Source: Fistulifera solaris (taxonomy: Eukaryota). Taken from it: a stretch of 64,000 bases of DNA. Numbering within the stretch: position 1 is the stretch's first letter; every line of letters starts with the position of its first letter. The translations under genes and the position numbers were made by a program. Location: positions 124,001-188,000 of the forward strand of contig AP026129.1 in the NCBI GenBank assembly GCA_030295235.1. Reading direction: 5' to 3'. Below the pieces are notes generated by a model. That model ran no database searches, was not told the origin of the DNA, and worked only from the letters and a program-made list of their open reading frames with translations. Positions 1-60,846 of the stretch are shown piece after piece.

Positions 1-78
1 TTGCAACGCCGGAGGCAGCGCCGCACCGGCAGTAGCTTTCATTGCATCGTTCCAAGCTTTTCGAGCTGTCGCGGCCAT
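1..78 (-). CDS. 5' end of an unidentified gene running off the window, divergent from adhE
   Basis: ATG at 78 after an A-rich leader; open to the window edge (MAATARKAWNDAMKATAGAALPPALQ...). Too short to identify. Confidence 0.45.
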   Translation of the reverse strand, partial: MAATARKAWNDAMKATAGAALPPALQ

Positions 79-618
79 TTTCTAATTGTTGCTTTTATGT
101 GAAGAGAACAATGAAACAAGAACGAATGGTTGATATCACAAATCAATATTAAGTAGCTCGTAAGTTTATCAAGGCGACAAGGTTGCCTGTATTAGTACAA
201 CAACACGCAAATGGTGGGACGCACGGACCGGACGGAAATAAGGACGATGTTCGTTTGTCGTTAATCGTGAAGAATAATCATCCCCGTGAACAACTTCTCC
301 GCTATGATCTAGAATACGCTTAAAGTGTAGGAGACTTTCGGGCTTCCACCAATGAAATAGTTCGCTTTCTTCTGCGAAAAGAATAGTATAGCATACTTTG
401 TACTTTGCAGAAACCCACGTTCTTTCCCAACGAATATCATCAGGAAGAGGATGATTCATTTTTCATTCGGAGATCGCATTCTGCGAAGCGAAACGAGAAC
501 GCTTTTGTGAGATTTTTTTTTCTCAATCTGATTCATTCATAAAATCAAAACATTCCGATCCAATCAAAAAGCCGAAAAAAAACAAACTAAACGACAAACA
601 AAAGAAGCATTCATTAGA

Positions 619-3488
619 ATGACTGATCTTCAAAAACTCGACGAACTCGTCAAGCGTGTCAACGCGGCTCAGAAAGTCTTCGCCACGTACTCACAAGAAC
701 AAGTCGACCAGATCTTCCGTCGCGGCAGCGTTGGCGGCCGATGCTCGCATCCCCTTGGCTACCATGGCCGCTGAAGAGTCCGGAATGGGTGTCATTGAAG
801 ATAAAGTCATCAAGAATCACTTTAGTTCGGAGTACATCTACAACAAATACAAGGATGAAAAGACCTGTGGAGTTCTCGGTCGATGACGAAATGGGCATCA
901 TGATCCTCGCAGAGCCCATTGGAACGATATGCGGCGTTGTTCCCTGCACGAACCCAACGTCTACGACTATTTTCAAGGTAAATACCATCATGATCATTTT
1001 CGTTAAACAATTGTCTGCTTCAACCGCTCACAAACTCGGTTTGTTCAACGCGAGCTCATTTGCTTGAAGACGCGCAACGCGATCGTCTTTTCTCCCCATC
1101 CACGCACCAAAAAAGTCTACCGCGTACACTCGCGAAATTGGTCTTGGACGCAGCAGTGGCTGCAGGAGCTCCTCCAGATATTATTGGCTGGATTGAAGAG
1201 CCTACTTTGGTCCTATCGCAAGCTCTGATGCATCATGACGGCATTGATCTCATCCTCGCTGACGGGTGGGCCAGCCATGGTCAAGGCGGCCTACTCTTCG
1301 GCAAAACCAGCTATCGGAGTGGGAGCTGGCAATACGCCAGTAGTAGTTGATGAAACAGCTGATGTCAAGCGCTGTATCGTCGATTCTCATGTCCAAGACA
1401 TTTGATAACGGGGTGGTGTGTGCCTCCGAACAATCGCGGTGTATTGTTGTCAATAGCATTTACGAACAAGTCAAAGAACGTTTTGCCAAGTACGGAGGTT
1501 ACTTCTTGAGTGCAGAGGAGGCGGAAAAAGTACGTGCTCTTCTCTTCATCAAGGGCTTTGAACGCTAAAATTGTCGGTCAATCGGCTCTCAAGATAGCTG
1601 AATTGGCTGGAATCACCGTCCCACCTTACACCAAAGTGCTTATTGGTGAGGGCAAGGTCTTGTCAGATGAAGATGACTTTGCTCATGAAAAACTCTCTCC
1701 GACTTTAGGATTCTATCGTGCCAGCAATTTCAACGGGCGGTTGACATGGCTGTTACGGCTGTCGCCATGGGTGGCGTTGGTGTAAGTTTTAAAAGTCATC
1801 ATTCTTTGTTGCTGACTCTCTCTTTATGGTGCCTAACTTTATTCTTCTGGATTCAACAGCACACATCTTGTCTATACACGGACCAAGATAAGAACGACGA
1901 CCGCATTCAATACTTTGCCAAGAAAATGAAGACCGCTCGAATCTTGCTCAACACGCCCCACCCTCGCGGTGGAATTGGTGACTTGTACAACTTTGCACTG
2001 GCTCCTTCTTTGACACTAGGTTGCGGTTCATGGGGTGGTAATTCAATCTCGGAAAATGTTGGACCCAAGCACTTGATCAACAAGAAAACGGTAGCCAAGC
2101 GAAGAAAATATGCTGTGGCACAAACTTCCTCCGTCGATCTACTTTCGTTTCGTGGGGCCATGGCAACCGCCATGGAGGATTTGAAAAGATTTCAAAAGGG
2201 CTGCCATTGTTACGGACAAGTATCTCTACAATAATACTCCACACGTCCATGAGTTGCATGACTTGCTGAAAGCACAAGGAATCGAGACGCAAACGTTCTC
2301 ACGAAGTCCAGGCCGATCCAACTCTGACTACCATTCGTAAAGGAACCGACATGTTGGAAAACTTTGTCCCTGATCTCATTATCGCCATAGGAGGAGGGAG
2401 TCCCATGGATGCCGCCAAAATGATGTGGGTCTTGTATGAGCATCCCGAAGTAGATTTCAAAGAGTTGTCGCTCCGTTTCATGGATATTCGCAAGCGTATC
2501 TTTCATTTCCCAAAAATGGGGACCAAAGCAAAACTTGTTTGCATCCCAACCACCAGTGGAACCGGAAGTGAGGTGACACCTTTCGCTGTCGTAACAGATG
2601 ACTCCACTTCCCAAAAGTATCCCTTGGCAGATTACGAATTGACGCCTTATATGGCGATTGTGGATGCTAACTTGATCATGGACATGCCAAAGGGTTTGAC
2701 GGCTGCTGGAGGCATTGACGCTGTCACCCATTCCATCAAGCCTATGTCTCTGTGCTCGCAAATGAATTCTCTGATGGACAGGCTTTACAGGCTTTGAAGT
2801 TGTTGAAAGCTTATCTCCCGCGTGCCTACAAAAAAAGGCGCCGATGACCCAGTAGCTCGTGAAAAGGTTCACAACGCAGCGACCTTGGCTGGTATAGCTT
2901 TTGCAAATTCGTTCTTGGGAGTTTGTCACTCGATGGCACACAAGCTTGGCGCTGAATTCCACATTCCTCATGGAATCGCCAATGCTCTTCTGTTGACCAA
3001 CACTATTCGGCTTCAATGCAACAAACTTGCCCACCAAGCAGACCGCATTTTCGCAGTACGATCGTCCAAATGCTCTTCGTCGCTATGGCGAGATTGCCTT
3101 GCACTTGGGTTTTACACAAGAGCACACGGTTGATCGTGTGAACGCGATGTTGGATTGGCTGGACGAGTTGAAACGCGATTTGGATATTCCAATGTCAATC
3201 CAAGAATGGGGGGTCGACGAAACCGAGTTTATGGAGAAGGTTGACCAACTGGCAGTGAATGCTTTTGATGATCAGTGCACTGGTGCAAATCCTAGGTATC
3301 CTTTGATAAGTGAACTCAGGAGCATACTCATTGATTCGTATTATGGCCGCCCTTATGTTGAGGAGTACGAGAGAGGACCTATCCGCAAGAACCAGTTCAA
3401 GGATTCTTTTACTATCATGAGCCCAGGAAATGGCTCTGAACACTCCTTTCAGATGGTAGGATCTACCGCAGAGGCTGAGAAGAATTGA
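619..3488 (+). CDS. adhE: Bifunctional acetaldehyde-CoA dehydrogenase / Fe-alcohol dehydrogenase AdhE; two introns and many frameshifts
   Basis: Stitched frames follow E. coli-type AdhE end to end: MTDLQKLDELVKRV, ADARIPLA, EDKVIKNHF, VPCTNPTST, GVGAGNTP, SKTFDNGVVCASEQS, HEKLSP, SLTLGCGSWGGNS, GGGSPMDAAK, GTGSEVTPFAV, CHSMAHKLG, HGIANA, AFDDQCTGANPRYP. Introns at about 978-1054 (GTAAAT..AG) and 1782-1859 (GTAAGT..CAG). More than 10 small indels. Confidence 0.93.
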
Positions 3489-3616
3489 AAGGCTGTTCAC
3501 TTGGAATGTTGTATAAAGTGAATGTATAAACTGAATTTGATTGCGCAACCTCTTCCTTCATTTTGCTTTTCGGTATAGATTGCATCAATTCTCTAATGTC
3601 GGTGCCTCTTCAAATG

Positions 3617-5025
3617 TCATTCTTCCTCATCCATTCCATTTATTTTTGCTAGAAAACAGTAACGACAATGCTCCAAACAAGCCGAAGCTTCCTGCTAAGG
3701 CGCAATCTGAACACCTAAGTTGTCTGCAAATAAGCCGAGAATAAAGGGAGCAATGATGTATGTTCCATCTCCGGTTGCCCTGGGCAATGCCATAGCTGTT
3801 GCCGGGCCTTGAGCTGTTGATCCAAAACTCCATAAGAGTACCACAGCGGAAAAAGCCAACACATGGCCTCGTTGTTGAAAGTAGCAAACGGAGAGTCGCC
3901 TTTCAAGGAAAGAGCCCATGGAATTGACATTAAGCCTGTTGCGCTGATCATTCCACCCAGTACACAAGTGGCACGCGCGCTTATCTTGTCTGTGCAGAAA
4001 CCACCTACTGCGGCACCAAGTAGTCCGGTCAACCCGGCCGCTGACAACAGAAGACCTGTGCCAGCAGCACCACCAGGCAAGCATTCTGTAGCCAGGATCG
4101 GTATTGACGCAATTTTCGCAGCAAATCCAAAACTTGCACCACTTTGACATAGGGCCAAGGCCTGCCAGCTGCGCTCTTTTAAGAGCAAAATCCAGTCCCC
4201 CGAACCAGCTGTGATATTCTCCGTTTCCTCATCATACCTATTTTCAGTGCTTTGCAAATTAACAATCGTTTCAGGTAAAATCCAATACAGGAACCAACAA
4301 ATAGTAGCAGCAGCACTGACACACAAGAACGACGCCGAGGTCCGTATTCTTCAACTATCAGACCTCCGATGGGTGCGCCAATAGCAATACCAAGAGCTGC
4401 AACGGCTTGTTGTGCGGCAACAACTTTCCCTCGCTGGCTTTCGACTCGTTGTGCTAAATCGGCCAGCATTCCCCGTTCTCCCGCTTTCGGACCAACTACG
4501 ACCCACTCCGAGACCAAATCGTGCTAAAATGAGCAGCGGCAGATTGGTAGCACAAGCGGTGCCGAGATCAGCTACTGCAATGATACCCATGCCCCAGATC
4601 ATTGCTACTTTTCGAGCCTTGTCGGCCTGCTTTCCCGACCAGTTGGCCAGAAGCAACAATCCTACTGCAGGTGTTGAAATCACGATTCCATTTGCTGGGG
4701 ACGAGGCCAATTTCCTTTCCATAGAGGGGGGATACTTGGGATAACAGCTCCTACTCCAAGAAAAAGTACGAACTGTGAAAGCAAAAGAAGCGCATGGCTT
4801 GGCGACACTTTCAGAAGGAAAGGCAAACCAATCAGGGCGCACGGTTTTCAGAAGGCAAACCTTTCACAATGGTGATAGGGACATTTGTTTGCACTGCTTT
4901 GGGGTAGACTTCGATGCGGAGGTTTCAGCACGGAGGGGTGGCGATAGTGTAAATGGTTTAGCACAGCGAAATAGCAGCAGAAGGACCCCGCAAAAGCATA
5001 AAGTTCTACTCCTTGCGATTATCAT
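3617..5025 (-). CDS. Major facilitator superfamily transporter (frameshifted), possible N-terminal signal/transit peptide
   Basis: Overlapping ORF fragments give successive TM helices with MFS motif A-like (SGKQADKARK; GGFCTDKISAR), ARFGLGVG and motif C-like (GIAIGAPIGG). ATG at 5025 begins MIIARSRTLCFCGVLLLLFRCAKPF. The 3' end is approximate. Confidence 0.75.
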
Positions 5026-5458
5026 CTTTTCGGGTTGAATATATTATTGTTATCGATCATTCCAACTAAATGAACAATGTAAGGAGCTAGAGCTTTGTTC
5101 CTCGATCGTCAGACGCATTTCGGCTTCATTTTTTCACCTCCGCCGTTGCTGACCTGCGCGTCGCGCGCTTTCGCGCTAAAAATACTTAAGCGGTGAAGAC
5201 GGCGCGCGCTTACCACTATGGGGTCGGGACAGCACCTATTCATAAATATAGTACTTTATGGCTTTTAAGTGACCATTTTTGATAAGACATAACGAATGAA
5301 TAAACGACCAAACACGAACAGCATCCCACCAATCATTCAAACGATAAACAAAATAACAAACATATTCTTTCTCGTTCTATCCTAACGAAACAAAGAAAAC
5401 CATTTGTATCTCTTTGAAGATAAAAGGTGTAAATAAAGTGAGTTAAGTTTATGCAGGC

Positions 5459-40901: not shown

Positions 40902-42943
40902 TTAGCCGTCGTTATCCTTGATAGCCGTTGGAAGCACATCATCTGTTGAAGGTTGCGGCGCCACATGTAGTGCCACTTTTTGGACAAGCTGCTCCGTGTT
41001 ATTAACACATTTGTTAAGATGATTCATCGCTCCAGGAGACGAGTGCATGCTAGGCGCGTTAGAGACATCCTGTAGGGCTACCTGTTGCTCGGCCGCTGAC
41101 GCATCGACAGCGGCATCGAAACGAACCCGATTAATACGTATACACCTACAAGGGCCACTCGACACAAAAGCATCAAAGTCAGGTTTGTACACCGGATTCG
41201 TTAGCGCACCAATTCCTAACACCGACCAAGACCCCAAGTCTGTGCGGAACTTTTCTTCGCCGACAAACACAGTGACTTTTCCCGAGAGAAGTAATGTACA
41301 AACATCCGTTTCTTCGCCTTTCGTGTACAACAAAGTCCGAGGCAGATCTTGTCCGATTTCTCTTTCTACCTCAGGTAACGTGATCACCTGAGATCCTGAC
41401 ACTAGTAGTTCTGCTTGTCGATTGCTAAGGAGTTCCCAAGTGCTAAAGTGATTCCGTTGCAAGTGAGCGGTGATGGCCCTTGTTTCTTCGACCGATAATC
41501 TTTCGTCCACTAATTTAGAGTCCAACAAGCGAAGACGTGCCCACTCGAATACATCTGTACGCGTCACGAGCTCCGTATGCGTACCATCTACGAAAGCATC
41601 TGTTTCGTCGACAATTTCGTCACCAAGTATCTCTTCGATGATATCCTCCAACGTAATGATGCCTTTGACCTCATAAAACGGATCCTGATCCTCGTCCTCA
41701 TTGTTGACATCCCGAACCAGCGCCATATGCGTGCGTCCTGTTTTCAGTTCACGCAAAACATCACCGAGTTTATCATCAGGCCAAACCGTGTTGAGCGACC
41801 GTCCAAATATGTTGATGACATCTGATACCCGCGTATCATCTTCGGGATCCACGAAAATAAGGTCCTTGACCAAAAGTAGTCCAATGACATTATTCTACGT
41901 CACAAAAAAGAAACGCGTTTAGTGGCCCGACCCCACAAATTCAAATTCAATAGCAAAACGACGACGACAACGAACGACAAATTACTTACTCGATTGACTT
42001 CATAGATCGGTATTCGCGAATAGCCCGTCTTGAATATATTCGAGATAGTTTGAAAGTTAAGTTTCTCATCGACAGAAAGCATGAATGTATTGGCAATCGG
42101 TGTCATGACTTGCTTAACGGGGATGTTTTTGAACAAAAGTGCCCCCGTCATGGTGTTGGCCGTCTCCTTGTCCAGAGCATTTTCCTCCACATGTATTTCC
42201 AGTATCTTTCGTATTTCCGAACTACTGTAAATAGTAGCCAGTTCAGTTCCCAAAGTATAATCTAGAGAAAGAGCCAGAGGTTTGGTGATGGGATAGAGAA
42301 GCACCATGACGACCCGAACAAGAGGTACGGTCATACTCCCCACTCGCAATCCGTATCGACTGCAAAACGCTTGAGGTGCAATCTCACCAAAAATGACAAT
42401 AATAAATGTCGAGGCAAAGAAACCCACCAGTCCTCCCGCTTTGTCAGCTAATAAAATGGATAAGAGAGCATTTACAGCGACATTTCCCCAAACCAAAGTA
42501 CACAACAGCAAGTTCCCATCTTGACGAATGGGGTAGATTTTCTTGGCATACTCGGCCGCTTGACGGTCTTCTCCCGACATGACAATTTCGAGCCCGGTGA
42601 TATCAAGACTCATGAGACCAAGCGTTAAACCGCTAAATACAGCGGACATGACAATCAACAGTACAATAAGAATGATTTGTATAGCGAGGGGCAGAAAGTT
42701 TAGAGGGTTCCCTGAAGGACATTCTTGCTGATATTGCTGACAACAGGCTTCTGTACATGTTTCCTCTGTATCTTGTAGAAGACGCGTGACTCTTAGATGT
42801 TGAGATGAAACAATGTCGGCTTGACTTGTTCGTTTTTCGAAACAAGAAAAGAGAGTCGTGGGAATGGCGGCCGCAATCAACATGACAAAAACGAAACGAC
42901 AAGTAACGTTCTTTTTTTTCGTGCGCTTGTGCTGTATCGTCAT
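40902..42943 (-). CDS. CNNM/CorC-family Mg2+ transporter (DUF21 + CBS pair + cNMP-binding-like), copy A; intron 41895-41989
   Basis: FSGLTLGLMSLD, LLCTL..GNVAVN, FGEIAPQA (DUF21); VMTP, GYSRIPIY, HMALV, GIITLEDIIEEILG.EI.DETD (CBS); LLLSGKV.V..G (CNBH). Confidence 0.92.
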
Positions 42944-43372: not shown

Positions 43373-45234
43373 CTAAAACTTGACCGCGGACGCATCGACA
43401 GCAGCATCGAAACGAGCCCGAGTAATACGTATACACCTACAAGGGCCACTCGACACAAAAGCATCAAAGTCAGGTTTGTACACCGGATTCGTTAGCGCAC
43501 CAATTCCTAACACCGACCAAGACCCCAAGTCTGTGCGGAACTTTTCTTCGCCGACAAACACGGTGACTTTTCCCGAAAGAAGTAATGTACAAACATCCGT
43601 TTCTTCGCCTTTCGTGTACAACAAAGTCCGAGGCAGATCTTGTCCGATTTCTCTTTCTACCTCGGGTAACGTGATCACCTGAGATCCTGACACTAGTAGT
43701 TCTGCTTGTCGATTGCTAAGGAGTTCCCAAGTGCTAAAGTGATTCCGTTGCAAGTGAGCGGTGATGGCCCTTGTTTCTTCGACCGATAATCTTTCGTCCA
43801 CTAATTTAGAGTCCAACAAGCGAAGACGTGCCCACTCGAATACATCTGTACGCGTCACGAGCTCCGTATGCGTACCATCTACGAAAGCATCTGTTTCGTC
43901 GACAATTTCGTCACCAAGTATCTCTTCGATGATATCCTCCAACGTAATGATGCCTTTGACCTCATAAAACGGATCCTGATCCTCGTCCTCATTGTTGACA
44001 TCCCGAACCAGCGCCATATGCGTGCGTCCTGTTTTCAGTTCACGCAAAACATCACCGAGTTTATCATCAGGCCAAACCGTGTTGAGCGACCGTCCAAATA
44101 TGTTGATGACATCTGATACCCGCGTATCATCTTCGGGATCCACGAAAATAAGGTCCTTGACCAAAAGTAGTCCAATGACATTATTCTACGTCACAAAAAA
44201 GAAACGCGTTTAGTGGCCCGACCCCACAAATTCAAATTCAATAGCAAAACGACGACGACAACGAACGACAAATTACTTACTCGATTGACTTCATAGATCG
44301 GTATTCGCGAATAGCCCGTCTTGAATATATTCGAGATAGTTTGAAAGTTAAGTTTCTCATCGACAGAAAGCATGAATGTATTGGCAATCGGTGTCATGAC
44401 TTGCTTAACGGGGATGTTTTTGAACAAAAGTGCCCCCGTCATGGTGTTGGCCGTCTCCTTGTCCAGAGCATTTTCATTCACGTGTATTTCGAGCATTTTT
44501 CGAATCTCCGAGCTGCTGTATATCGTGGCAAGCTCAGCGCCTAGGGCAATATCCAGTGAAAACGCCAGCGGCTTGGTGACAGGATACATGATAAACATAA
44601 TGACGCGAACAAGTGGAACCGTCATACTCCCAATTCTCAACCCGTGTCGACTGCAAAAAGCTTGAGGAGCAATCTCACCAAAAATGACAATGAGAAAGGT
44701 CGATGCAATAAATCCTACGATGCCTCCCGCTTTATCTGCCAGTAATATCGATAAGAGAGTATTTACTGCCACATTTCCCAAGAGCAAAGTACACAGTAAA
44801 AGGTTCCCATCTTGGCGGACAGGATAGATTTTCTTGGCATACTCGGCATTTTGTCTGTCCTCTCCTGACATGACGATTTCGAGTCCGGTGATATCGAGAC
44901 TCATAAGACCAAGCGTTAAACCACTGAATAGAGCAGACATACTGAGCAAAACAACAATAAGAATGATTTGTATAGCGAGGGGCAGAAAGTTTAGAGGGTT
45001 CCCTGAAGGACATTCTTGCTGATATTGCTGACAACAGGCTTTTGTACATGTTTCCTCTGTATCTTGTAGAAGACGCGTGACTCTTAGATGTTGAGATGAA
45101 ACAATGTCGGCTTGACTTGTTCGTTTTTCGAAACAAGAAAGGAGAATCGTGGGAATGGCGGCCGCAATCAACATGACTAAAAAGCATCGATGATAAGCGT
45201 CATTTTGTTTCGTGCGCTTGAGCTGTATCGTCAT
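43373..45234 (-). CDS. CNNM/CorC-family Mg2+ transporter, tandem copy B; intron 44186-44280; different, shorter C-terminus
   Basis: Same motifs as copy A at a constant offset of 2291 nt. Stops at AVKF*; a one-base change would extend the frame to 43222. Confidence 0.9.
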
Positions 45235-56619: not shown

Positions 56620-58619
56620 ATGATAGGTTCTCGGAAACATGCTGTTCTCAGACTCTCTCTTGTTCTGTTCGTTCATTTCAGTCGTAGCGTGAGTGTGTTT
56701 GGTAACGAAGACGAAGAAGAGGAAGAAGGAGAAGAAGAACAAAACAATGACTTCTTGTATGCTTCAGAGGACGCTCTGCCGGTGATAGAATATCAGAATA
56801 AAGACGACGGAGAGCAGCAAAGTCATCCCGACTTTCTCTATGAATCCAGCAATATCCCTCGTCTTGTTGTACGTGCCTCTTGAAGAAAACGCAATCTGGT
56901 GTTGTCCCTTTTTCTTGTCGCTCATACTCTTCGGCCTTGTCGCTCAACTCTTTCTGCCATTCATCGTCCCTAACAAAAGGAATTTTACGCTCCCTGGTGT
57001 CCTCATGTAAGTCCCAAGAAATGAAATGACCCTCGGGCTCAAAATTTCAAGGCGACATATCTCAAAAGATTTTTCGTCCCTATTGGGCAGTGTCAACATT
57101 TCCGAAATCATTTCGTCGAATTCGCCAGACAGGTCAATGCCGTGACAGAAGAAGCCGGATCGGAGTCCATTGAATTTCATGCCGTATCATGTGTCGCACA
57201 TAAGTCGATTTGTCGTGGTATGTTTGCTGTTTGCTTATCGTAGTTCTATGTAAGGGGCGTCACGAAATGGGGATTCTCACACGACCATTGTTCATTATTT
57301 CTCAGATTTCTCTATTAAAGGATATCCACGGCTCCTTCTTTGTAGGTTTCCTTGATCAATTTCCTTTTGTACTGCGCACGTGACGTTGCTCACACACTTG
57401 TCTATAGTTCCAGCAGGAGTCCGGAAAGAGAATGCCATCGACATGAACTATTGGGAGCTCCATCCGTTTGATCTGCTCAATCGTCTGGGGATTCAAGTTG
57501 AGGAAATGCACTTAGGTTCTATCGTAGATGCTATTCCTCCGGCAGCTCAACTGAAAGGATCAGAAAACAGAATTCAGCCAACAATTCGACGTACAAAGCA
57601 AGATATTTACAATGAAGCATACTTGGCTTTCGACTTTAGTTTACGAAACGGCGTATTCACTTCGAACGACCCCTTGACGACTAACACAAAACAAGCATTG
57701 CACGAGTGGCTGGAACTTTTACGACGATCGCTTCCTCCCGTTTGGAAAATTCATCGCATCATTCGTGCACTTTTGGACGACTTTGAACGGGCCACGACTG
57801 GCGAGAAACAATTGCTCCGAATCATGGATCAGTTACCACCACCACCCGTCAAAGTCTGGTCTGACTTCTGCACCAAAGGAATTGCAGGAATGGGATATAC
57901 CTGTGGCCTCTGGGGTCTCTTTCATATCATGTCGGTAGGTATCGTTGAATGGAACATGATGTTGGATGAAGAGCAAGGTGATATGGCTCTATCTCCAATC
58001 AACGCAGCTAACGTGCTGCGCGACTTCATCGCTAATTTCTTCGGCTGTGAAGTGTGCCGGACCAATTTCCTTGCATCTTTTGATGATTGTGCATTTGATC
58101 GATGTAACCGGCTCACGGAGGACGATCTAGACTATGAACATTGGATACAATTTCCGATTTGGCTCCACGACATGCACAATGGAGTAAATTTGCGCCTGGT
58201 GAGAGAAGCTGCGGAGCGAGAAGGTAGCACTCTGTCTCATATCGACGAAACACGCTCTCAGTGGCCTTCTCAATCAGATTGCCCCAAGTGCTGGTATGAA
58301 GATGGTTCACGTGATGAATGGATCTACAAGTTCCTACGAGTGGAATATTGGTATGTGATCATGGCGTTTTTGATGAATGTATCAGCATTACTTAAAGGCA
58401 CTCTATTGCAGGCCGGATGACTTTCTAACCACCGACTATAAAGCTGCTCTTGTGGAAATGTCTCATGATGAGATAGTCGATGATGATGTTTCAACCCCGC
58501 CCCCGCTTCACCGTTCTTGGACCCTTCCAGCAATTGTTTTTCTAGCTATGGTCGCTTTCTTGCGGTTCAAGAAAATGAAGCGCTTCAGAACGGGAAGACA
58601 CAAGAAGATAGATTCGTGA
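56620..58619 (+). CDS. Quiescin sulfhydryl oxidase (QSOX)-like: thioredoxin + Erv/Alr FAD domain + C-terminal TM, paralogue 1, five introns
   Basis: Signal peptide; spliced EFYAPWCPH/CQHF; HAVSC; GYP; YTCGLWGLFH; FFGCEVC; WLHDMHNGVNLRL; WPSQSDCPKC. Introns start at about 56869, 57007, 57218, 57342 and 58351. Confidence 0.88.
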
Positions 58620-58678: not shown

Positions 58679-60846
58679 TTACAATTTGCGTTTCTTGGGT
58701 GCCACCTGTGGGCCAAGATTCTTCGCTAGCCATAATGATCGCTGAATATGGGGTGTTGAAATGCTTGTCTGCAGAAAATAGAAGAGAACGATCAAAGCTG
58801 TTGCCAAGAAATACATCAACCCTCGATTCGCAGGAGTGTCACCTTCAAACCAAATTAGACCGTTGTCCATGTGATCAAAGTCGAAGTCGAAATCAGGCCT
58901 GAAGACTCAGTGTTAGAGATAGTTACCTGGTATTTGAATTTCACATAGAATATACAATCCTTACCAGTAGGTCTCTTCCAAATGTCGAAACACGGCTGCC
59001 TCGTTCCAAGTACCGTCAATGTTGAAACAAACGAGACAATCCCCCATGTCAGGCCACAACGCCTCAATTGTTGTTTCAGGAGAAGCGATACCTGGACCAG
59101 CACCCGCGCGACTGAGAAACGCCTTTTGCTTTTTCTTCAGTTCCGCATCAGCCGCTTCATTTACAAGTTCCACATTCAGCGAGTTGTGAACTTCCCAAAA
59201 CCACATGGCAAACTCTTTCCAGTCCTCGTCCGACGCACTGTACGTGTCGCTCGAAAGTCGGACGCAACGACGGTGTTTCTCGCAGTCGTCGTAGTCCTCC
59301 AGGAAGGATTGAGCGCATTCTTCGCAGTGAAAGAAATGAGCAATATAGTCGCGCACTGTGTCCGCTGCTTCTTCGGGAGAAAATGTTCTTGTGCCAACCG
59401 GACGCGCTTCGATGTCAATCAAATTCAGGCCGCCTCTGTGTTCCGCAATACCGACCGAAATGACGTGAAACAATCTCCAGTAACCACAACCTAATTTTGC
59501 GGGTAGTGTTTTATTCTTGATCCCACAGGTCGGACTAAAATACTTCCTTCGGATCTGATATCGGTCGACTACTTCTTTCATATTTTCGAAACGCTCCGAG
59601 ATGTATGCTATATTCTGGCGTAGGTCGTAAATGAGAGAATGAAGAGCCCATTCGGGTGGCAAGGAGATGTCTAGCAAGTCCAACCAGTTGGTCAACGCTT
59701 TCTGTTTCGCCGGTGTCAGCGACCCACCCTTTTGAAGACGCTAAACGTCAGACCGTGCCAGATCGCCATGGTGCAATCCAGAATGAGTTGCTCTTCGGCG
59801 CCCATGCGAACGACGCGCTTTACAGCTGGAATTCGTTCCACAAGTTTTGTTTTAGTAACATCTTTTTGAAAAGCGGGTTTACCAAGAGGAATACCAGGAC
59901 CCGCATCAAAGACAATTTTGTTGTTCTTCTTTTTTGCTGTTTCATAAAGTTTATATATTTGCGTTTGCGTTCAAGGAATTCCGCTGTCTGCACTTTGTTT
60001 CCTTTCATGGTAGGCGTGGCTCCTTCATCTTCATCAATGGGCATAACGGGCGGCCCTTTTTTGTTTCCAGCCCCTTTGACTCCCCTTCGGCTTTTGTTTC
60101 TGCATCTTGACTTTCATCTGATCTTTGAATTTATCCATGTCACGCTGACGATTCTTCGCCAGTGCTGCTCCAGCCTTGGGACGCGGGGGAGAGTTGTTTG
60201 CAAGATCGTCGTCATCGTCGGACGGCTTGTGGCTATCTTTCGTGTCAATGCCACTGTCTTCGTCAGCCGGGCTTTTCTCAATCACTTCTCTCGCAGTATT
60301 CGACAGGACTTTTGATTCTGATAGTATATCTTCGGGAGGGTTCGGTCCAATAGGTCGAGTAGGCAAAAGCTTATTGATATTATCCCATTTCAATTCCGGT
60401 TGGCCGAGCGCAACAGCATTGTCTTTGAGGGGTTCGGCCCCTGGTGGTACAACGAACATAGACGGGACACCGCGTATAGCCCATTTCGAGCACAATTCCC
60501 TGTGCACAGCGCACGAAACAGCCTTTACATGGATTTCATCTCCGTGTTCTGCCAGCAAAGTCTTGGCGGCTTCTATAAAATGTGGCTTGAACGCTATGCA
60601 ATGTCCCTAATAGAAAAAAAGGTGGGGGTTGAGAGAAACGTCGCGACTTACTTGCAGGGAACAGTTTAACTCAACTCGACAAGCGAAACTTACACAATAA
60701 GGGCTGTAGAACTCAATGAGCAAAATTTTGTTGTCGCTTTTCTCGAGTTCGCCAACATCTTCGACCTCAAGGACATCTTCGTAGAGGAACGTTTTGTCGG
60801 CCGAGCTCTTGGAGAGCAAAAGCAGCCAGAAAAACAATCGGAACAT
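58679..60846 (-). CDS. QSOX-like sulfhydryl oxidase, paralogue 2; introns 60607-60693 and 58899-58964; several frameshifts around 59700-60060
   Basis: Signal peptide; EFYSPYC/GHC; KAVSC; GVP; GCGYWRLFH; FFHCEEC; WFWEVHNSLN; WPDMGDCLVC; C-terminal TM. Confidence 0.85.

Follow-up and report, generated by a model that had tools for sequence, protein, structure and literature searches.

The 64,000-nucleotide stretch of the Fistulifera solaris genome analysed here (GenBank assembly GCA_030295235.1, contig AP026129.1, positions 124,001 to 188,000 of the forward strand; hereafter the window) contains an AdhE-like coding sequence at positions 619-3488 of its forward strand, scattered across all three reading frames. 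We assign a probability of about 0.8 to the reading that the locus is an intact, expressed nuclear adhE of the raphid pennate diatom F. solaris, or of a near-identical strain, which was obtained from a Reinekea-like marine gammaproteobacterium and likely serves to regenerate nicotinamide adenine dinucleotide (NAD+) in anoxia. GenBank and UniProt already list the gene, and the value of the locus lies in its evolutionary and physiological reading rather than in gene discovery. What is added here is that the damage to the reading frame is artefactual, that Reinekea-type sequences are the relatives closest to the donor lineage, that the gene is shared among raphid pennates, and that a motif in the C-terminal tail is conserved. 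No paper discussing AdhE of diatoms was found in the searchable literature. The main text of a preprint surveying horizontal gene transfer in diatoms (10.1101/2020.01.24.918219) does not mention adhE, alcohol dehydrogenase, ethanol, or fermentation; its supplements may list the gene.

Identity and bacterial ancestry of the gene

Chains of Escherichia coli AdhE in the Protein Data Bank match the fragment encoded at 2270-2794 (E = 5e-72 to 1e-71), and at the nucleotide level blastn matched adhE in 5,422 of 5,426 E. coli genomes with 68.6% identity and 75% query coverage. When the translation of an annotated E. coli adhE was aligned to the DNA with frameshifts and GT..AG introns permitted, 596 of 855 residues were identical (about 70%), and the alignment required 14 frameshifts and two introns of phase 0, at 978-1054 and 1782-1859. 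Four stretches singled out in a preliminary description of this DNA, which was made from its letters alone, are ADARIPLA, HTSCLYTDQD, PTKQTAFSQYDRP, and AFDDQCTGANPRYPLISEL, and all of them match E. coli exactly in this alignment. However, the accompanying statement that long parts of the protein are nearly identical to E. coli AdhE was overstated, because it is true of the most conserved blocks only.

The clean fragment 2300-2734 has much closer relatives. Its top match is a 559-residue protein from the Joint Genome Institute with 99% identity, and the proteins of Cylindrotheca closterium and C. fusiformis are 92% and 90% identical to it, compared with 84% for a transcript of MMETSP0725 and 74-77% for various Gammaproteobacteria. 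The 90% cluster of the top match includes two F. solaris proteins from GenBank, GAX26579.1 and GAX23271.1, which are each 905 residues long, are labelled 'acetaldehyde dehydrogenase / alcohol dehydrogenase', and are 98% identical to each other. The translation of the window equals GAX26579.1 at 893 of 897 aligned residues, and therefore the locus is the already deposited F. solaris gene, namely the homeologue encoding GAX26579.1. The four mismatches belong to a compensated indel pair (1959-1965) and to positions beside the frameshift at 2299. Agreement with the other homeologue, GAX23271.1, extends to 875 of 896 aligned residues. F. solaris is presumably an allodiploid with two subgenomes, which fits the presence of the two proteins. 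Logan contigs of four sequencing runs (X1-X4) were aligned to window positions 300-3900. Those of run X1 represent two forms of the locus, one free of substitutions relative to the window and the other approximately 5-8% divergent, which correspond to the two GenBank homeologues.

The C. closterium protein was also used as a full-length query; the search, of which the 120 best matches were considered, retrieved diatom sequences first, then Reinekea sp. (79% identity), Teredinibacter (76%), and Celerinatantimonas (74-75%); identities to proteins of Tolumonas, Aeromonas, Photobacterium, Vibrio, and Moritella were 72-74%. For scale, AdhE of the diatom Entomoneis is 78% identical to that of C. closterium, beside the 79% of Reinekea sp. 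The relationships were analysed in two maximum-likelihood trees. The first, under the LG+G4 model, has 83 full-length rows, derived from 195 proteins of at least 800 residues by collapsing near-duplicates. The second comprises 52 rows, 11 of which are partial proteins of the eukaryote type, and was calculated under LG+C20+F+G4 by the posterior mean site frequency method. The 22 eukaryote-type rows of the second tree all fall into a single clade with a support of 99 in the Shimodaira-Hasegawa-like approximate likelihood ratio test (SH-aLRT). The nearest neighbours of this clade are the bacterial rows P0040, P0089/P0036, P0033, and P0122, and the set composed of the clade, these neighbours, and the Teredinibacter group is also supported at an SH-aLRT of 99. 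Celerinatantimonas/Moritella, Neiella/Agarivorans, Vibrionaceae, Aeromonadaceae, and Enterobacterales are located farther out. The clusters of P0040, P0039, and P0057 are named Reinekea sp., R. blandensis, and R. forsetii, and in both trees the bacterial sequences closest to the clade are of the Reinekea type. R. forsetii is a bacterium associated with diatom blooms.

The position of the eukaryote clade inside gammaproteobacterial sequences (SH-aLRT 99) bears out the horizontal acquisition proposed in the preliminary description. The acquisition is old, however, and is not a peculiarity of this genome. The named members of the clade are F. solaris, C. closterium, C. fusiformis, Entomoneis sp. 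CCMP467, and Amphora coffeiformis, all of which are raphid pennate diatoms, and many other relatives carry the gene as well. The position of intron 1 is common to F. solaris adhE and the relative P0006, the sequence of which opens with an intron read-through that runs up to ALICLKTRN and marks an intron at this very K|A position. The simplest reading of these relationships is that a single horizontal transfer took place from a Reinekea-like marine gammaproteobacterium to the ancestor of these raphid pennates. Several properties of the trees limit the strength of this reading. Both are quick searches with SH-aLRT as the only measure of support and with an arbitrary root, a Holophaga-like pair. 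Seventeen of the 22 eukaryote-type rows were called eukaryotic from their tails and intron read-throughs, and only five named eukaryotic sequences are present besides the window's own row. Furthermore, the trees are without AdhE of chlorophytes, Entamoeba, diplomonads, and fungi.

No sequence named as Phaeodactylum, Thalassiosira, Fragilariopsis, Pseudo-nitzschia, or Seminavis was found among the 120 best matches, which is a weak hint that the distribution of the gene among diatoms may be patchy. Runs X3 and X4 contributed only small shares (0.13) with 90-99% likeness to the window, and their contigs were treated as belonging to relatives only. X4 is an environmental RNA library, in which a 1,400-letter contig matches the alcohol dehydrogenase half of the gene (2101-3490) and departs from the window at 60 letters and by 7 gaps. 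The contig points to the adhE of a close relative in the library. Reinekea itself has two types of AdhE. Those of R. thalattae and R. marinisedimentorum (P0056, P0107) group with Vibrionaceae, and those of R. blandensis, R. forsetii, and Reinekea sp. (P0089, P0039, P0057) group beside the diatom clade, which hints at a transfer of adhE among bacteria as well.

In the proposed history, the ancestral adhE would have moved once from a Reinekea-like marine gammaproteobacterium into the ancestor of several raphid pennates, and the gene would since have acquired spliceosomal introns, polyadenylation, the base composition of the host, and a new tail rich in serine. The gene offers a case of domestication in which the nearest bacterial relatives are still 76-79% identical, and in which intron gain, tail replacement, and drift of base composition are directly readable.

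Predicted enzyme, its role, and its location

The three-exon gene codes for one 905-residue polypeptide carrying two domains, an N-terminal coenzyme A-acylating aldehyde dehydrogenase and a C-terminal iron alcohol dehydrogenase. GAX26579.1, which is the window's protein and has the identifier P0225 in our set, scores 1387.1 bits against the NCBIfam equivalog NF010378 (cut-off 951) and covers positions 12-869 of the 872 in the model. Its Pfam domains are Aldedh (1e-26), Fe-ADH (4e-46), and ADH_Fe_C (5e-51). The motif FDNGVVCASEQS contains a cysteine, encoded at 1419-1421, that is aligned to C246 of E. coli AdhE, which is the catalytic nucleophile. Also conserved are D653 (2717-2719), H657 (2729-2731), H723 (2927-2929), and H737 (2969-2971) on the forward strand, in E. 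coli numbering; these residues are the iron ligands. By homology, the diatom AdhE would reduce acetyl-CoA to acetaldehyde and then to ethanol with the use of two reduced NAD+ (NADH) molecules.

The preliminary description considered it possible that the enzyme assembles into spirosomes. In the part of the study by Kim et al. 2019 that is accessible (PMC6778083), F670 in a pocket of I460, F462, and I712 forms the hydrophobic contact between alcohol dehydrogenase domains that holds filaments of E. coli AdhE together and that is needed for activity. The residue aligned to F670 is encoded at 2767-2769 on the forward strand, and the F. solaris proteins have the same four interface residues as E. 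coli. The alignment position of F670 is occupied by phenylalanine or tyrosine in 14 of 14 sequences. Because the interface residues of E. coli are kept, the diatom AdhE probably forms spirosome-type filaments.

The eukaryote-specific tail of the protein (3375-3485, forward strand) consists of 37 Ser-rich residues that follow YYGRPYVEEYER. The distinct C-terminal tail noted in the preliminary description thus stands with respect to this end, but the first part of it (YVExYER) was inherited from the Reinekea-like donor group: the stretch YYGRxYVExYER is common to the diatom and Reinekea-type proteins, and the sequences diverge thereafter. Bacterial tails are rich in lysine and alanine (28% K and 23% A in 143 tails), whereas eukaryote-type tails are rich in serine (17% S). 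The motif [DEST][FWY]xx[LIVM] occurs in 24 of 27 eukaryote-type tails and in 18 of 21 when only distinct tails are counted, compared with 5 of 115 bacterial tails and with a mean of 2.1 and a maximum of 7 in 1000 shuffles of the eukaryote-type tails; the tail sequences are related, and the counts are thus not independent. The usual form of the motif is DSF[TA]VL (DSF[TA][VI][LM]; S-F-x-x-L), and it is kept while the remainder of the tail varies. The tail of the window's protein contains DSFTIM (3402-3419) and SFQMV (3444-3458). An R/K-x-x-S/T site is located upstream of the motif in 14 of the 27 tails, against a mean of 6.6 in shuffled tails. As a lead only, the form of the motif is reminiscent of the Atg8-interacting motif (the LIR or AIM). 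It is speculative, and rather doubtful, that the Ser-rich end, which replaced the Lys/Ala-rich end of the bacterial enzyme in the diatom lineage, is a short regulatory module lacking in bacteria. If the motif does bind Atg8, AdhE filaments could be removed or sequestered through selective autophagy, or else switched by phosphorylation, upon the return of oxygen. If true, a eukaryotic layer of control would have been added to a bacterial filamentous enzyme.

The accessible portion of PMC12924338 describes Chlamydomonas AdhE as plastidial and as the main producer of ethanol in dark anoxia. For benthic diatoms, nitrate respiration and fermentation are the reported means of surviving dark anoxia (PMC3660698, PMC8443593), and the accessible portions of these two sources leave the enzymes unnamed. 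The fixation of a bacterial AdhE in microbial eukaryotes for redox balance in anoxia is a known kind of event, according to the available sections of PMC1484493 and PMC12924338. It is plausible that the diatom AdhE produces ethanol and regenerates NAD+ in dark anoxia. The enzyme would act in the cytosol, likely as spirosome-type filaments, and would regenerate NAD+ in benthic cells located in sediment or biofilm without light and oxygen.

It is unlikely, but deserves consideration, that the main role of the enzyme is not anoxic fermentation but the oxidation of ethanol or acetaldehyde to acetyl-CoA, the detoxification of aldehydes, or a function in cold or other stress. The reaction of E. coli AdhE was measured in both directions, as stated in the accessible part of PMC6778083, and transcripts are present in runs without stated anoxia. 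Oxidation of this kind could feed lipid synthesis in the oleaginous F. solaris. Nevertheless, the established job of the family in bacteria and Chlamydomonas is the reduction of acetyl-CoA in anoxia, as far as the available portions of PMC3660698 and PMC12924338 describe it. The named carriers of the gene likewise speak for fermentation over these other roles, as all of them belong to the raphid pennates. Raphid pennate diatoms are benthic or biofilm-forming. The presumably cytosolic AdhE of Fistulifera, Cylindrotheca, Entomoneis, and Amphora is a candidate for the NAD+-regenerating step in buried benthic diatoms, and this role is testable by knockout in a transformable species. In F. solaris, AdhE bears on the budgeting of both acetyl-CoA and redox equivalents.

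A location in the cytosol is most likely, and it is the simplest reading because the protein has no presequence. The absence of an N-terminal extension, already remarked on in the preliminary description, was confirmed: the ATG at 619 corresponds to residue 1 of the diatom proteins and to residue 3 of E. coli AdhE. Import into the plastid or mitochondrion by way of an unrecognised signal or an upstream exon is quite improbable. It would agree with the organellar location of the chlorophyte enzymes (PMC12924338, in its accessible part), and the mRNA has been traced upstream no farther than position 541. However, the N-terminus is acidic (MTDLQKLDELV) and aligns residue for residue with bacterial proteins. 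Four proteins of the Fistulifera/Cylindrotheca type share this start, and those of Entomoneis, P0020, and P0027 have only short N-terminal additions. Furthermore, the open frame that contains the ATG begins at 532, directly after an in-frame stop. Import into diatom plastids requires a signal peptide. The C-terminus is without an SKL-type ending.

Reading frame, transcripts, and nuclear context

The alignment guided by GAX26579.1 contains 15 frameshifts, and in addition a codon at position 733 and an alanine at the boundary of intron 1 are missing, and the codon at 1437-1439 is superfluous. The frame is thus broken 15 times in 2.7 kb, while open reading frames of 1071, 803, 748, and 676 residues are intact elsewhere in the window, as might be expected if the frameshifts were real and adhE were a decaying pseudogene. 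This explanation is highly improbable, and the read contigs led to its rejection. Short-read contigs that share the genotype, with 0-1 substitutions relative to the window, remove the indels, and therefore the 15 frameshifts are consensus errors rather than decay, for which many indels without substitutions are implausible. A contig of run X1 that covers 955-1206 has 4 gaps and 1 substitution, and one that covers 1300-1632 has 7 gaps and 0 substitutions. The indel places listed individually are 721, 732, 878, 1260, 1959, 1962, 2148, 2184, 2300, 2737, 2833, and 3009, beside 28 further ones; 9 of the 15 predicted frameshift sites fall among these 12, and the contigs that cover the remaining 6 sites carry gaps. 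An intact protein of the same sequence is present in GenBank: the entries GAX26579.1 and GAX23271.1 are automatic annotations with intact frames, in contrast to the window version with its 15 frameshift errors.

The errors are regional and confined to roughly the first 5 kb, because the convergent gene of a major facilitator superfamily transporter at 3698-4863 (reverse strand) is likewise split over several frames, while the frames beyond stay intact. Indel errors cluster in window positions 1-5400, and the open reading frames of 676-1071 residues are intact from position 5447 on. The first 5400 positions have the look of a part of the assembly where polishing was lacking or coverage was low.

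Apart from the consensus errors, the gene has three exons on the forward strand. Upstream of the start codon, the 5' untranslated region has a minimum extent of 541-618, as an RNA-like contig of run X2 (record 9) extends back to 541. Exon 1 (619-977, defined by alignment to GAX26579.1) encodes the start codon and the first approximately 121 residues of the aldehyde dehydrogenase domain. It has frameshifts at 721 and 878 and lacks a codon at position 733; the reads are one base shorter at 721 and carry an additional GGC after 732 and AA after 878. Exon 2 (1055-1781) encodes the remaining core of the aldehyde dehydrogenase domain, including the catalytic cysteine, and is disturbed by frameshifts at 1109, 1131, 1261, 1373, 1557, and 1735 and by the extra codon. 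Exon 3 (1860-3488) completes the aldehyde dehydrogenase domain and continues through the linker, the iron alcohol dehydrogenase domain, and the tail to the stop codon at 3486-3488. It contains frameshifts at 2100, 2149, 2184, 2299, 2738, 2830, and 3011 and the compensated indel pair 1959/1962, and reads correct it at 1959, 1962, 2148, 2184, 2300, 2737, 2833, and 3009. The Pfam families Fe-ADH and ADH_Fe_C were detected in the pieces of exon 3 as they stand in the window. The 3' untranslated region extends over 3489-3546 to an approximate poly(A) site, which is derived from an X2 contig of the sister homeologue.

The two GT-AG introns of the preliminary description were recovered with one reservation. 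Intron 2 (1782-1859, 78 nucleotides, phase 0) has clean GT..AG ends. Intron 1 (978-1054, approximately 77 nucleotides, phase 0), which an X2 contig skips, has a GT donor at 978, but assembly errors obscure the acceptor near 1050-1054, and the exact position is unreadable in the window. An X1 contig has G instead of A at 1053, which abolishes the modelled AG of intron 1, and the mRNA needs one codon, for alanine, beyond what this AG permits. The sequence of the relative P0002 opens inside intron 2 as a read-through of its 3' part. The relatives P0012, P0021, and P0027 have an intron at GDLY|NFALAPS, which is without a counterpart in F. solaris and which P0027 reads through in frame. Because the GDLY|NF intron is present in some relatives and not in F. 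solaris, the gain of introns in adhE continued after the transfer.

Contigs of run X2 cover the exons and not the flanks, with a depth of 0 at 300-420 and 3567-3900. One of them joins 978 to 1058 with 5 letters in between, which gives the sequence FKALICLK found in all diatom homologues. A second contig joins 1781 to 1860 and skips 78 nucleotides with GT..AG ends. A third contig stops at 3535 and continues with 11 letters and a run of A. The pattern looks like that of a spliced, polyadenylated mRNA, seen on the sister homeologue. The evidence for expression of the window's own copy is limited by three circumstances. The label of X2 as RNA is a guess only. The contigs with splice joints and poly(A) differ by 5-8% from the window and represent the sister homeologue. 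Finally, the window's own copy is represented in X2 by only two short exon contigs free of substitutions. Run X1 covers introns and flanks and is hence DNA-like. The splicing anticipated by the preliminary description is therefore present, as both introns are skipped in RNA-like contigs of the sister homeologue, and reads link the locus to its flanks: adhE is tied to its surroundings because X1 contigs bridge 300-711 and 3362-3802.

The eukaryotic character of the neighbourhood, on which the preliminary description relied to dismiss contamination, was corroborated. Pfam was run on 47 of the 57 open reading frames of at least 150 residues in the window. The families of the neighbouring genes are eukaryotic and include an XPG nuclease with a chromodomain, Tpt1, Kelch repeats, a Deltex RING domain, Golgin, and Syf1-type HAT repeats, as well as Nop52, SET, RCC1, a GRF zinc finger, a TGS1-type cap methyltransferase, Sdh5, Erv1, and an HSF DNA-binding domain. 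The content of guanine and cytosine (GC) is 0.46 over adhE, compared with 0.42-0.48 elsewhere in the window. The window is nuclear DNA of a eukaryote, and adhE has the composition of the host. That this adhE is bacterial DNA joined to diatom sequence through contamination or chimeric assembly has a negligible probability and was rejected on splicing and linkage to the flanking sequence: the protein is indeed 74-79% identical to gammaproteobacterial AdhE, but two spliceosomal-type introns are removed in RNA-like contigs with a poly(A) tail, read contigs bridge both ends of the gene into its flanks, the GC content is like that of the host, and the gene with a shared intron position is also present in other diatoms.

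Two further arrangements were observed in the window. Genes of CNNM-type metal transporters are arranged in tandem at 40905-42943 and 43376-45234, both on the reverse strand, and each is composed of an open reading frame with the CNNM transmembrane domain followed by one with a CNBH domain. Two open reading frames of Erv1/Alr sulfhydryl oxidases are convergent, at 57356-58417 on the forward strand and at 58964-59740 on the reverse strand.

Comparison with known AdhE systems

The spirosome of E. coli AdhE (PDB 6AHC, 6TQH, 7BVP) is formed by a protein with the same two-domain layout, which is 68-70% identical to that of the diatom. F670, the pocket residues I460, F462, and I712, C246, and the four iron ligands are as in F. 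solaris, whereas the C-terminal tail differs. AdhE proteins of R. blandensis, R. forsetii, and Reinekea sp. are 76-79% identical over their full length and have the same catalytic and interface residues, with tyrosine at position 670. Unlike the diatom gene, adhE of Reinekea and related bacteria is without introns.

Among eukaryotes, ADHE of Chlamydomonas and Polytomella, ADH2 of Entamoeba, and the corresponding proteins of Giardia and Piromyces are the same enzyme, acquired by the same type of lateral transfer. The AdhE of chlorophytes is targeted to organelles, according to the accessible part of PMC12924338, in contrast to the diatom protein without a presequence. The diatom clade has much closer gammaproteobacterial relatives of its own; the trees presented here do not include the other eukaryotic lineages.

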